A stretch of 64,000 bases of DNA from Candidatus Egerieisoma sp. Its GTDB lineage: Bacteria > Bacteroidota > Bacteroidia > Bacteroidales > UBA932. The stretch spans positions 17,924 through 81,923 of the forward strand of contig JAZNXX010000003.1 of NCBI GenBank assembly GCA_045594125.1, written 5' to 3'. Both the position numbers and the translations under genes were made by a program. Every line of letters begins with the position of its first letter. Within the stretch, counting starts at the first letter, position 1. The notes below the pieces were generated by a model. The model was not told where the DNA came from, made no database searches, and saw only the letters and a list, made by a program, of their open reading frames with translations. This document shows positions 33,924-37,710 of this stretch, in pieces.

Positions 33924-34688
33924 ATGGTCAGGGAATTTGATATATTTCTGATGGTTATGAGTGGAATTGCACTCATCGTATTTGTTACGCTCTATTTTGT
34001 GACGGCAGGCTATGGCAAGTTTGTATCAAGGAAGTGGGGACCATCTGTCGATAACAGGATAGGGTGGCTGCTGATGGAGGCGCCGGTCTTTATTGTTATG
34101 CTTGTCTTGTGGATAAAGAGCAGCAGAGCCTTCAACCCTGCAATTATGGCTATGGCTGCAATTTTCCAGCTCCACTATTTCCAACGCTCATTTATCTTTC
34201 CCCTCCTTATGAAAGGCAAGAGCCGGATGCCGCTCCTGATTATGGTTATGGGTATCCTGTTCAATACTGTGAACGGACTTATGCAGGGGGGATGGCTGTT
34301 CTATATCTCACCTGAAGGTACATATACTGCGGATTGGTTGGTATCGTGGCAATTTATATCGGGAACACTGATATTTTTTTCAGGATTTATAATAAATCTC
34401 CATTCCGACAATATTATACGTAATCTCCGCAAGCCTGGAGATACCAGCCATTATCTTCCTCAGGGAGGCCTTTTCAATTATGTTACCTCTGCCAACTATT
34501 TTGGCGAGATTCTGGAATGGTTGGGATTTGCCCTCCTAACCTGGAGTATGGCTGGAGTTGTATTTCTCTGGTGGACTATTGCCAATCTGGTGCCAAGAGC
34601 AAACAGCATATATAAAAGATATGGTATTGAGTTTGGGGATCAGATGAAAGAGAGAAAGTTGAAGAGGATATTCCCATTTATCTATTAA
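33924..34688 (+). CDS. 3-oxo-5-alpha-steroid 4-dehydrogenase (steroid 5-alpha-reductase) family membrane protein
   Basis: 254 aa, polytopic. The C-terminal 'GGLFNYVTSANYFGEILEWLGFAL' is characteristic of the SRD5A family. Confidence 0.8.
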   Translation: MVREFDIFLMVMSGIALIVFVTLYFVTAGYGKFVSRKWGPSVDNRIGWLLMEAPVFIVMLVLWIKSSRAFNPAIMAMAAIFQLHYFQRSFIFPLLMKGKSRMPLLIMVMGILFNTVNGLMQGGWLFYISPEGTYTADWLVSWQFISGTLIFFSGFIINLHSDNIIRNLRKPGDTSHYLPQGGLFNYVTSANYFGEILEWLGFALLTWSMAGVVFLWWTIANLVPRANSIYKRYGIEFGDQMKERKLKRIFPFIY

Positions 34689-34699
34689 AATTCTGGACA

Positions 34700-35920
34700 A
34701 TGGAATCTAAACTGTTTACCCCTTGTAAATTGGGTCCTGTTACATTGAGAAACAGGACTATTCGTTCTGCTGCATTTGAAAATATGGCAACGGGCAACAA
34801 CCCTTCAAAAATGCTGTTGGATTACCATCGGAGTGTGGCTGCGGGAGGTGTGGGAATGACAACTCTTGCATATGCATCGGTAACTCAAAGCGGATTGTCT
34901 TTTGCAGACCAGTTGTGGCTCAGACCGGAGATTGTTCCCGATTTGAGGGTAATAACAGATGCTATACATAAAGAGGGTGCTGCTGCATCCATTCAGATAG
35001 GCCATTGTGGTAATATGAGCCACCGGGAGTTTACCAAGTGTATACCTCTGTCGGCCTCTAATGGTTTCAACCTCTATTCTCCCACATTCCACAGAAAACT
35101 TTCGGAAAGAGAGATGATCGAGATGGCAAAATCTTTTGGCCAGGGTGTCTCTCTGGCAAGGGAAGCGGGCTTTGATTGTGTTGAGGTACACGCCGGTCAC
35201 GGTTATCTTATCAGCCAGTTCCTGTCGCCATATACAAATAGAAGAAGGGACCAGTATGGAGGTTCTTTAAAAAACAGGATGAAGTTTATGCAGATGTGTA
35301 TGAACGAGGTGATGGAGGCTGCCAAGGATGATATGGCCATTGTGGCAAAGACCAATATGAGCGATGGCTTTAAAGGTGGTAACGGAGTTGAGGAGGGGCT
35401 TGAGATAGCCCGGGAGTTGAAGAATCTGGGCCTTCACGGTCTTGTCTTGAGTGGAGGATTTGTCAGCAAGGCACCTATGTATGTGATGAGAGGTGCTATG
35501 CCTATCAAATCGATGACATATTATATGAAGTTATGGTGGCTTAAATATGGAGTGAGGATGGCTGGCCGTTATATGATCCCGACTGTCCCCTTCAAGGAGG
35601 CCTATTTTCTGGAGGATGCTCTCAAATTCAGGGAGGCAATCCCTGATATTCCACTGATTTATGTGGGAGGATTGGTTTCAAGGGAGAAGATTGACGATGT
35701 ACTTGATAAAGGTTTTGAATTTGTGCAGATGGGCCGTGCTCTGTTGAATAATCCATCTTTTGTGAATGATATGAAGAGAGGGGTGGAGCGTTGCAATTGT
35801 GGCCACTCCAACTATTGTATAGGGCGTATGTATTCAAGGGAGATGGCCTGTCACAAGAGTTTGAAGGAGCAGCTTCCTGACAGTTTGAAAAGGGAGATTG
35901 AGAGGCTGGAGCAAATGTAA
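34700..35920 (+). CDS. NADH:flavin oxidoreductase, Old Yellow Enzyme family
   Basis: 406 aa with 'RNRTIRSA' and '[33 protein letters not shown]'. Confidence 0.85.
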   Translation: [406 protein letters not shown]

Positions 35921-35943
35921 TGGCGTAAAATGACGGTAAAGTA

Positions 35944-36840
35944 ATGGATAAAAATGGAGCTATGAATAGGACAGGAGTGTTGGTTCATAATGGAAAGTGT
36001 GCATTGGTTACGGGTGCAAGCTCTGGTATGGGGTTCCATTATGCCTCCCAACTTGCGGCCTATGGCTACAATGTGATATTGGTAAGCAATAGGGCTGAGG
36101 AGGTTATTGAATCTGCCGGGACTATTGCTGGAGTGCACAAATGCAAGGTGATAGAGGGGTTGTCGGATTACACCGCGGAGTCAAAAGATTATCTGTCGGC
36201 GTGCGGACAGTGGGTAGCAGGAATATATAAAGATCTTTCCAGACCAGATTCGGCAAAGGAGCTCTATGATCTTTCAGAAGAGCTTAATCTTGAGGTTGAG
36301 GTCCTTATAAATAATGCAGGAATCTTCTTTTTCAGGGATATTCTGGATTGTACACCCGAGAAGGTCTCAACAATTGTGAATCTCCACGTATACACGGTGA
36401 CTATGTTGTGCCGCTATTTTGGAGAGAGAATGAGGAGCCGAAGAAGAGGTTACATTCTCAATATGTCTTCAATCTCTGTCCATACGCCATTCCCGGCGAT
36501 ATCACTATATACAGCCACAAAAAGTTACATTAGAACAATGTCAAAGGCCTTCAGGCTTGAGATGAAGGAGTTTGGTGTAAGGGTGCTTGTTGTCTCTCCG
36601 GGTGCGGTAGCAACGGATCTTTACAACCTTCCAAAGAATCTCCAGCAGTTGGGCATATATATAGGAGTCATATACAGGCCTGAAAAACTGGTGGGGAGAG
36701 CTCTCAGGCGACTCTTTAAGGGAAAGAAAAAAGAGTATATACCAGGGGCTGTGAACTATCTCTTCAAGCCTATATACTCAATTCTTCCGGAATGGTTCAA
36801 GATGTGGGCCCGCAAAAAGACAGCTTCATTCAGAAGGTAG
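35944..36840 (+). CDS. SDR family oxidoreductase
   Basis: 298 aa with 'VTGASSGMG', 'NNAG' and 'YTATKSY' (YxxxK). Confidence 0.85.
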   Translation: MDKNGAMNRTGVLVHNGKCALVTGASSGMGFHYASQLAAYGYNVILVSNRAEEVIESAGTIAGVHKCKVIEGLSDYTAESKDYLSACGQWVAGIYKDLSRPDSAKELYDLSEELNLEVEVLINNAGIFFFRDILDCTPEKVSTIVNLHVYTVTMLCRYFGERMRSRRRGYILNMSSISVHTPFPAISLYTATKSYIRTMSKAFRLEMKEFGVRVLVVSPGAVATDLYNLPKNLQQLGIYIGVIYRPEKLVGRALRRLFKGKKKEYIPGAVNYLFKPIYSILPEWFKMWARKKTASFRR

Positions 36841-36861
36841 TTATCTTAAAATAGAGTTGTG

Positions 36862-37710
36862 ATGGAGCAGAAGATTGCAGTTATTACTGGTGGAACCGGG
36901 GGCATAGGAGGTGAGGTCTGTAGCCATCTCATCTCTTCCGGATATGAGGTGTATGTCGCATGCAGGAGGATGGAAAAGGGAAAAATATTGATGGAAACTC
37001 TGCAGAAACGGTATCCTGATATGGTTGATATGGATAGAAGTGTACACTTTATTCCAGCAGATCTGGTCTCATTCTCCTCTGTGGATAACTTCTGCAACTG
37101 TATACTTGAATCGCTGGAAGGCAGAAAGATTGACCTTCTGATAAACAATGCCGGGGCCATTTTGCCAAGATTTACTGTAACAGAAGATGGATATGAGGGA
37201 ATGATGCAGATAAATTACCTCTCAGCAATGAGGATAACAGAGAAACTCCTCCCAAATATAAGAGGTAAGGTTATCAATACACTCTCCTGTACCGTTGTGG
37301 CAGGTACGCCTGCCCTTCCTGAAAAGTACCATAAAGGTTCAGACGAGCATAAATTGTGGACTCTTAAAAGCCTTGAACTCTATAGCAATGCAAAGCTGAT
37401 GCTGGCACTATATACCATAGATTTGCATAAAAGAGCTGCCGGTCTGGAGATTATGGGGGCTGATCCCGGGATAGTGGATACCGGCATAATAACAATGGGA
37501 CGATGGTATGATCCTATTGCCAATATTCTCTTCAGACCATTCATAAAGAGTGCAGCATCAGGCGCCTTACCAATAATAAGAGCCATTGAATATTCGGGGG
37601 AAGATAGAATTGTACAGAGCGGCAATTCTCCAAAACTCTTTAAAGGAGATAAAATAAGATGTTTCCCAAAGAGGGTGCTTGATCTATTCCAGCGTAAATT
37701 TATCTTTTAA
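36862..37710 (+). CDS. SDR family oxidoreductase
   Basis: An ATG at 36862 lies one codon inside the GTG at 36859. Motifs: 'ITGGTGGIG', 'NNAGA' and 'YSNAKLM' (YxxxK). Confidence 0.85.
   Translation: MEQKIAVITGGTGGIGGEVCSHLISSGYEVYVACRRMEKGKILMETLQKRYPDMVDMDRSVHFIPADLVSFSSVDNFCNCILESLEGRKIDLLINNAGAILPRFTVTEDGYEGMMQINYLSAMRITEKLLPNIRGKVINTLSCTVVAGTPALPEKYHKGSDEHKLWTLKSLELYSNAKLMLALYTIDLHKRAAGLEIMGADPGIVDTGIITMGRWYDPIANILFRPFIKSAASGALPIIRAIEYSGEDRIVQSGNSPKLFKGDKIRCFPKRVLDLFQRKFIF

Follow-up and report, generated by a model that had tools for sequence, protein, structure and literature searches.

The window analysed here is the whole stretch of 64,000 nucleotides taken from contig JAZNXX010000003.1 of a Candidatus Egerieisoma sp. 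metagenome-assembled genome (MAG; 2.19 Mb, 62 contigs, 90.5% complete), and it carries four open reading frames (ORFs) on the + strand that together make up a putative steroid-modifying operon. Gene 1 (33924-34688, 254 aa) encodes a membrane steroid 5-alpha-reductase (5AR) of the SRD5A1/2 type, gene 2 (34700-35920, 406 aa) a short Old Yellow Enzyme (OYE) FMN oxidoreductase ('5BR', for 5-beta-reductase), gene 3 (35944-36840, 298 aa) a classical short-chain dehydrogenase/reductase (SDR), named type A here, and gene 4 (36859-37710, 283 aa, with a GTG start or else an ATG at 36862) a second SDR, type B, of the PRK06197 subfamily. The operon probably isomerises the A/B-ring junction of 3-oxo steroids and belongs to the Bacteroidota family of 5BR, 5AR and 3-beta-HSDH (HSDH for hydroxysteroid dehydrogenase) clusters, the 'isoalloLCA' family, named after isoallolithocholic acid (isoalloLCA). 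The original prediction, made from the DNA letters, had described tight co-directional packing with gaps of 11, 23 and about 20 nt, and the ORF calls bear this out with intergenic gaps of 11, 23 and 18 nt. The protein families that it had named are also found, with the SRD5A-family reductase, the OYE and the two SDRs matching PF02544, PF00724 and, twice, PF00106, and so are the motifs that it had quoted: NYFGEILEW in gene 1, HAGHGY in gene 2, and TGxxxGxG, NNAG and YxxxK in both SDRs. The GC content of the four-gene region is unremarkable, and an NCBIfam search gave an equivalog for none of genes 1-4.

The 5AR gene is present in a single copy in the genome and its product is polytopic by hydropathy. 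It aligns over its full length with PbSRD5A (PDB 7C83; E 1.3e-55) and with human SRD5A2 (PDB 7BW1; E 1.7e-44), and the NYFGEILEW motif starts at residue 191. Twelve residues, E52, Y85, R88, N158, D162, R166, R169, N191, E195, W199, R225 and Y233, are invariant in 82 of 82 homologues, and the protein conforms to the consensus at all 77 columns with 90% conservation or more. Reading the equivalents off the 7BW1 alignment, SRD5A2 E57 and Y91, which we take from structure papers to be the catalytic Glu/Tyr pair at the substrate carbonyl, correspond to E52 and Y85, while R94, N160, D164, R171, N193, E197, R227 and Y235, presumably the NADPH-binding residues, correspond to R88, N158, D162, R169, N191, E195, R225 and Y233. 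One recognisable substitution lies at the position of SRD5A2 H231, which is Ile229 in gene 1 and His in PbSRD5A; across the 82 Bacteroidales and Treponema homologues, including those of Parabacteroides, this position is occupied by I, V, L or T and never by His. The replacement is thus a trait of the clade and not a defect, and it does not separate gene 1 from the lineage that includes the validated Parabacteroides merdae cluster. From these comparisons, gene 1 is predicted to reduce a 3-oxo-delta4 steroid to its 3-oxo-5-alpha form using NADPH.

A different reading of the same proteins would make the cluster unrelated to steroids, gene 1 being a polyprenol or enoyl-lipid reductase (SRD5A3, TECR or DUF1295-like) that works with the OYE and the SDRs in membrane-lipid or isoprenoid metabolism. 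Gene 1 does have weak secondary matches to PF06966 DUF1295 (32.7 bits) and PEMT (20.3 bits), relatives carry the NCBI name 'DUF1295 domain-containing protein', and the 5AR and OYE pair is found in rumen and digester organisms. Nevertheless, the primary Pfam match is PF02544 Steroid_dh with 147.6 bits, and the scores of 191.9 bits against PbSRD5A and 155.4 bits against SRD5A2 are set against just 35.4 bits (E 7e-08) for a TECR-type enoyl reductase. A grouping with polyprenol-reductase or DUF1295 proteins, set beforehand as a check, was therefore not found, the PDB and Pfam scores placing gene 1 with the SRD5A1/2 type. Homologues of the same families in the same order act on 3-oxo-delta4-lithocholic acid (3-oxo-delta4-LCA) (10.1101/2021.01.08.425963), and the distribution of the gene within its genus is patchy, unlike that of a core lipid pathway, so that a non-steroid role is very improbable.

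Gene 2 matches PF00724 Oxidored_FMN with 171.4 bits and is the sole OYE of the genome. Its HAGHGY motif, at residue 164, lines up with its counterpart in 3KRZ, YqjM and similar OYEs of the thermophilic type, the His-His-Tyr triad of these enzymes (H164, H167 and Y169) is invariant in 69 of 69 homologues, and the protein departs from none of 146 conserved columns. Against the BaiCD model NF041087 it scores 168.3 bits, compared with a cut-off of 825, and the match covers profile positions 3-261 of 642. Four cysteines, C103, C367, C373 and C384, are invariant in all 69 homologues, with C365 present in only 30 of them; three of these (C367, C373 and C384) form a C-x5-C-x10-C tail after the barrel, with H385 adjoining. 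These conserved cysteines may make up a site for a metal or an Fe-S cluster, in an enzyme devoid of the C-terminal domain of BaiCD. The C-terminal 126 aa, searched against the PDB for a match to the Fe-S ligands of FadH or TMADH, gave only generic TIM-barrel matches. Gene 2 is predicted to interconvert 3-oxo-5-beta and 3-oxo-delta4 steroids.

The cluster to which these genes are compared was characterized by Li et al. in 2021, with the order 5AR-5BR-3-beta-HSDH in Bacdor_03091/03090/03089, Parmer_04016/17/18 and Bvu_1964/65/66. In that work, the OYE turns 3-oxolithocholic acid (3-oxoLCA) into 3-oxo-delta4-LCA, the 5AR takes 3-oxo-delta4-LCA to 3-oxoalloLCA, the SDR takes 3-oxoalloLCA to isoalloLCA, deletion of Parmer_04016-18 abolishes isoalloLCA production, and the presence of the 5AR gene is a predictor of function (10.1101/2021.01.08.425963). 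The authors set the bar for homologues at over 50% identity and over 80% coverage relative to the proteins of Bacteroides dorei, P. merdae or Phocaeicola vulgatus, and they also mention a four-gene variant, with an extra SDR ahead of the 3-beta-HSDH homologue, that still made isoalloLCA (10.1101/2021.01.08.425963). Sato et al. 2021, as reviewed, described the same Bacteroidota cluster for isoalloLCA and A-ring isomerisation, and according to reviews and a culture-collection survey the 5AR, 5BR and 3-beta-HSDH genes are adjacent in most gut Bacteroidales. The content and order of the genes in the window match the clusters of Li et al., in agreement with the original prediction, which had likewise considered the system itself as not novel.

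Proxies stood in for the assayed proteins in the sequence comparisons. The first is a protein cluster drawn at 90% identity, whose 1,488 members include a Parabacteroides johnsonii protein (P0231) and whose representative is on contig L093; the others are a Parabacteroides goldsteinii protein (P0263) and a three-gene cluster from an abundant human-gut lineage that is carried by many human-gut contigs (L082-L091). Gene 1 is 60-64% identical to these proxies (P0231, P0263, L093 and L082), and gene 2 shares 66-70% identity with the second gene of the three-gene clusters from Parabacteroides and the human gut; applied to proxies, the 50% threshold of Li et al. would be exceeded by both. Gene 4, in turn, was compared with the third gene in L093, L094 and L082, which is presumed, from the published cluster architecture, to equal Parmer_04018/Bacdor_03089; gene 4 shows 34-37% identity to that gene (E 1e-36 to 6e-47), which would lie below the threshold. 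When the SDR of L093 was searched against the source genome, gene 4 was by far the best match (E 1.4e-41, with the runner-up at 2.5e-9), and because of this reciprocal best match it is regarded as a homologue of the 3-beta-HSDH type.

Both SDRs retain the landmarks of their family, and each shows two conservative changes in the conserved-column check. Gene 3 matches PF00106 adh_short with 113.9 bits and has TGASSGMG at residue 23, NNAG at 123 and YTATK at 189; gene 4 matches the same family with 78 bits, and NF004846 with 87.6 bits, and has TGGTGGIG at residue 10, NNAG at 96 and YSNAK at 175. Gene 3 shares just 23-25% identity with the gene at third place in the three-gene clusters and is of an SDR class separate from that of gene 4, with no close relative that is characterised or solved; PDB searches with the two SDRs returned generic SDR matches only and no specific HSDH. 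The original prediction had matched the two SDRs to 3beta-HSDH I/II, which homology supports for gene 4 only, gene 3 being of a different class. The names '3-beta-HSDH I/II' had no match in the literature search, the text of Sato et al. being outside its scope. Gene 3 may correspond to the insert that Li et al. call a 'putative 17-beta-HSDH'. It also carries a 22-aa insert of its own (residues 69-90) that is occupied in 2-9 of 33 homologues, all of them from the clade of the window, and that may or may not equal the two additional alpha-helices of an HSDH from a macaque MAG (PMC13682396).

If its proteins behave like the validated B. dorei and P. merdae enzymes, the operon would work in three steps, taken in the following direction. 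The OYE encoded by gene 2 would first dehydrogenate a 3-oxo-5-beta steroid, for example 3-oxoLCA, to the 3-oxo-delta4 enone; the 5-alpha-reductase of gene 1 would then use NADPH to convert the enone into the flat 3-oxo-5-alpha (allo) steroid; and an SDR, most likely that of gene 4, would reduce the 3-ketone to a 3-beta alcohol, giving the isoallo product.

The arrangement of the genes was compared across 80 loci fetched by 5AR similarity, to which the following counts refer. The OYE gene lies directly downstream of the 5AR gene on the same strand in 59 of the 80 loci, and this is also the case in L082-L095. The pair is accompanied by both SDR types in 15 loci, by type A only in 17, mostly labelled Enterocola or Paludibacteraceae, and by type B only in seven, and it occurs by itself in 20, some of which run off the end of a contig. 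All eight nearest relatives of the window (L001-L007 and L012) are among the 15 with both SDR types, as are MAGs labelled Alistipes, Bacteroides and Paramuribaculum. Synteny in relatives, one of the checks set beforehand, is thus seen both for the pair and for the full set of four genes, and since the order recurs in relatives across Bacteroidales families, the four-gene arrangement is not due to chance.

In a quick maximum-likelihood tree rooted on Treponema, the 5AR of the window pairs with that of L001 (SH-aLRT 96) in a clade of MAGs bearing the four-gene cluster, inside a Bacteroidales radiation that also includes the Parabacteroides clade. Its terminal branch is long (0.37, compared with 0.11 in its sister), as might be expected if the four genes were chance neighbours or decaying remnants that no longer form a working operon. 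The conservation check reveals no sign of decay despite this branch, with all four reading frames uninterrupted, no deviation from the conserved columns in genes 1 and 2 and only the two conservative changes in each of genes 3 and 4, and the gene order is kept across many families; the idea of a remnant is accordingly next to negligible. Within the genus, seven of 24 sampled species carry the 5AR, which indicates an accessory trait, with the caveat that the MAGs are incomplete, and the neighbourhood is rearranged in the same-genus genomes without 5AR that were examined for an empty site. A separate observation concerns the label of one of the nearest relatives: L002 (JAZNEW010000006.1) is also named 'Candidatus Egerieisoma sp.'; NCBI taxonomy puts this genus under Clostridiaceae, yet the gene content of the locus is typically Bacteroidales (the 5AR cluster, DUF2461 and type V pilus genes), so that the label or the taxonomic placement looks inconsistent.

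Several observations weigh against assigning this operon to the isomerisation of bile acids along the published route. The orthology to assayed proteins runs via the named congeners P. johnsonii and P. goldsteinii and via metagenome contigs, the 5AR is carried by a minority of the sampled species of the genus, gene 3 has no characterised relative, and the identity of gene 4 to the 3-beta-HSDH-type gene is at a level where SDR stereospecificity is not predictable. Others concern the substrate. In co-culture with Eggerthella lenta, P. merdae also needs its cluster to isomerise a corticoid-derived pregnane at the A-ring (bioRxiv 10.64898/2026.08.21.746344). The adjacent 5AR and OYE pair, sometimes with an SDR, occurs in nine MAGs labelled as rumen, reticulum or RUG (L022, L029, L039, L050, L051, L057, L059, L066 and L069), and in five more whose labels were read as digester or bioreactor. 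Since no bile gets to the rumen, bile acids are unlikely substrates there, and the substrates of those lineages may differ.

The same chemistry could then serve, in a herbivore-gut lineage, substrates other than bile acids, such as host C19/C21 hormones and biliary metabolites, or plant and dietary steroids. The pregnane result and the rumen and digester copies both speak for such a role, as does the origin of the nearest relatives, which are ruminant hindgut MAGs. These same relatives, however, come from the rectum or cecum, sites with bile acids, and the sole kinetic and genetic data for the family concern lithocholate-series bile acids (10.1101/2021.01.08.425963). In addition, the genome encodes a 362-aa protein of the choloylglycine hydrolase family (BSH/CBAH; PF02275, 204.6 bits; G000:C22:20071-21018, L092 1435-2523, minus strand) whose signal peptide and N-terminal Cys nucleophile, in a Cys-Thr-Gly motif, make it a candidate bile salt hydrolase. 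Because of the hindgut origin of the relatives and the presence of this gene, bile acids would most likely be the natural substrates of the operon, and an exclusive role in other steroids is rather unlikely, although the two readings are not mutually exclusive. On account of the pregnane activity in P. merdae and the rumen and digester copies, 'steroid A-ring isomerisation operon' is the safer name.

The only point of some remaining interest is the role of the type-A SDR. Rather than a redundant 3-beta-HSDH, gene 3 could encode an HSDH that differs in specificity, such as a 3-alpha-HSDH, a suggestion to which we give little credence; it draws on the 15 loci where type A accompanies type B and on the clusters of the Enterocola/Paludibacteraceae type, in which type A is the sole SDR detected. 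Bacteroidota are said to lack a 3-alpha-HSDH for the entry step, and P. merdae needs an Eggerthella partner (bioRxiv 10.64898/2026.08.21.746344). If gene 3 were a 3-alpha-HSDH, the operon would be self-sufficient, converting 3-alpha-hydroxy-5-beta bile acids, such as lithocholic acid (LCA) and deoxycholic acid, or steroids into allo or isoallo products, and the product might be alloLCA in place of isoalloLCA.

Transcription signals were sought around the four genes of the steroid operon. The TAnnTTTG consensus marks Bacteroides promoters, and two + strand matches to it, TAAATTTG at 33898-33905, a candidate Bacteroidetes -7 box 19 nt 5' of the first ATG, and TAATTTTG at 33911-33918, are the sole ones in the interval that separates gene 1 from the divergent gene upstream of it. 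The consensus is enriched in the window, with 89 matches observed and 49 +/- 7 in shuffled sequences, and a scan of the three intergenic gaps found no + strand match. The presence of candidate -7 boxes before gene 1 only fits a single promoter and a single transcript, and genes 1-4 look like one transcription unit. Scans with sigma-70 and terminator consensus sequences gave nothing exceeding the shuffled expectation, and no terminator-like hairpin was found 3' of the operon. A 13-nt direct repeat, CAGCGTAAATTTA, is located at 37690-37702 and 37711-37723, straddling the stop codon of gene 4.

Some features of the flanks differ between the window and its relatives. A lipoprotein-like ORF (37779-39071, 436 aa) was considered as a fifth gene and rejected; it is not counted in the operon because it is unconserved in relatives, with the exception of a single match, at 25%, in L005. 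In the nearest relatives L001-L004, the type V pilus genes are convergent and come right after the second SDR gene; in the window, where the flanks 28013-33850 and 37711-43061 were compared, they lie upstream of the DUF2461 gene. The block made up of DUF2461 and the four-gene operon thus has the opposite orientation with respect to the pilus locus. The downstream junction of this inverted block is occupied in the window by the unconserved lipoprotein ORF and a dead-kinase/AAA+ cassette; the cassette that starts at 39301 is outside the present operon finding.

IsoalloLCA and its allo-bile acid relatives favour the differentiation of regulatory T cells and hold Gram-positive pathogens in check, and the lineages that carry the genes for them thus matter for microbiome ecology. 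With the window, one more uncultured Bacteroidales lineage with a small genome, living in animal hindguts, is added to the known range of the cluster, and the wider set of loci reveals a 5AR and 5BR core combined with two interchangeable SDR types, one of them assayed. The occurrence of the core pair in rumen MAGs cautions against calling every copy a bile-acid gene. Judged by its sequence, the cluster of the window is a new copy, intact and ordinary, of the already described gene cluster that turns bent (5-beta) steroids into flat (5-alpha, allo or isoallo) ones.

At the level of single enzymes, gene 1 resembles PbSRD5A (7C83) and human SRD5A2 (7BW1) in being a polytopic membrane protein that keeps the Glu/Tyr pair and the NADPH-binding Asn, Asp, Arg and Glu residues, and it differs from SRD5A2 in having Ile at the His231 position and in sharing its operon with an OYE and SDRs. 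Gene 2 has the OYE TIM-barrel domain of BaiCD, one of the Firmicutes bai flavoenzymes (BaiCD/BaiH for the 5-beta and BaiP/BaiJ for the 5-alpha reactions), and its predicted C4-C5 chemistry on 3-oxo bile acids is like theirs. In contrast to BaiCD, the gene 2 protein does not include the C-terminal half with the flavin/NAD domain and gives no full-length equivalog match. The 5-alpha step of Bacteroidota is carried out by an unrelated membrane SRD5A enzyme and not by a BaiP/BaiJ flavoprotein (10.1101/2022.08.09.503364).

The surroundings of the cluster vary among its carriers. An OmpR-type response regulator lies directly upstream in L032 (7226-7996) and L093 (101-802), and in L094 (498-4957) and L095, from one Parabacteroides-like lineage, the 5AR cluster comes directly behind an RND efflux pump (OEP, MFP and ACR_tran) and a small P-II-like gene. 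Whereas the Parabacteroides loci have the OmpR-type regulator upstream, the window has neither a regulator nor a transporter adjacent to the operon.

As a whole, the operon shares with the Bacteroidota isoalloLCA cluster its three protein families and their order and strand, and it adds one SDR at the position of the extra gene in the variant of Li et al. It differs in its host, an uncultured Bacteroidales MAG lineage of about 2.2 Mb, in the low identity (34-37%) of its 3-beta-HSDH-type gene, and in the added type-A SDR with its clade-specific 22-aa insert. A parallel in kind is a candidate 5AR/5BR/3-beta-HSDH cluster reported in 2026 from uncultured Egerieousia MAGs (Bacteroidales) of the macaque colon, with a less conserved HSDH that bears two additional alpha-helices (PMC13682396); compared by description, these MAGs and the window are alike in being uncultured Bacteroidales with co-localised 5AR, 5BR and 3-beta-HSDH homologues.

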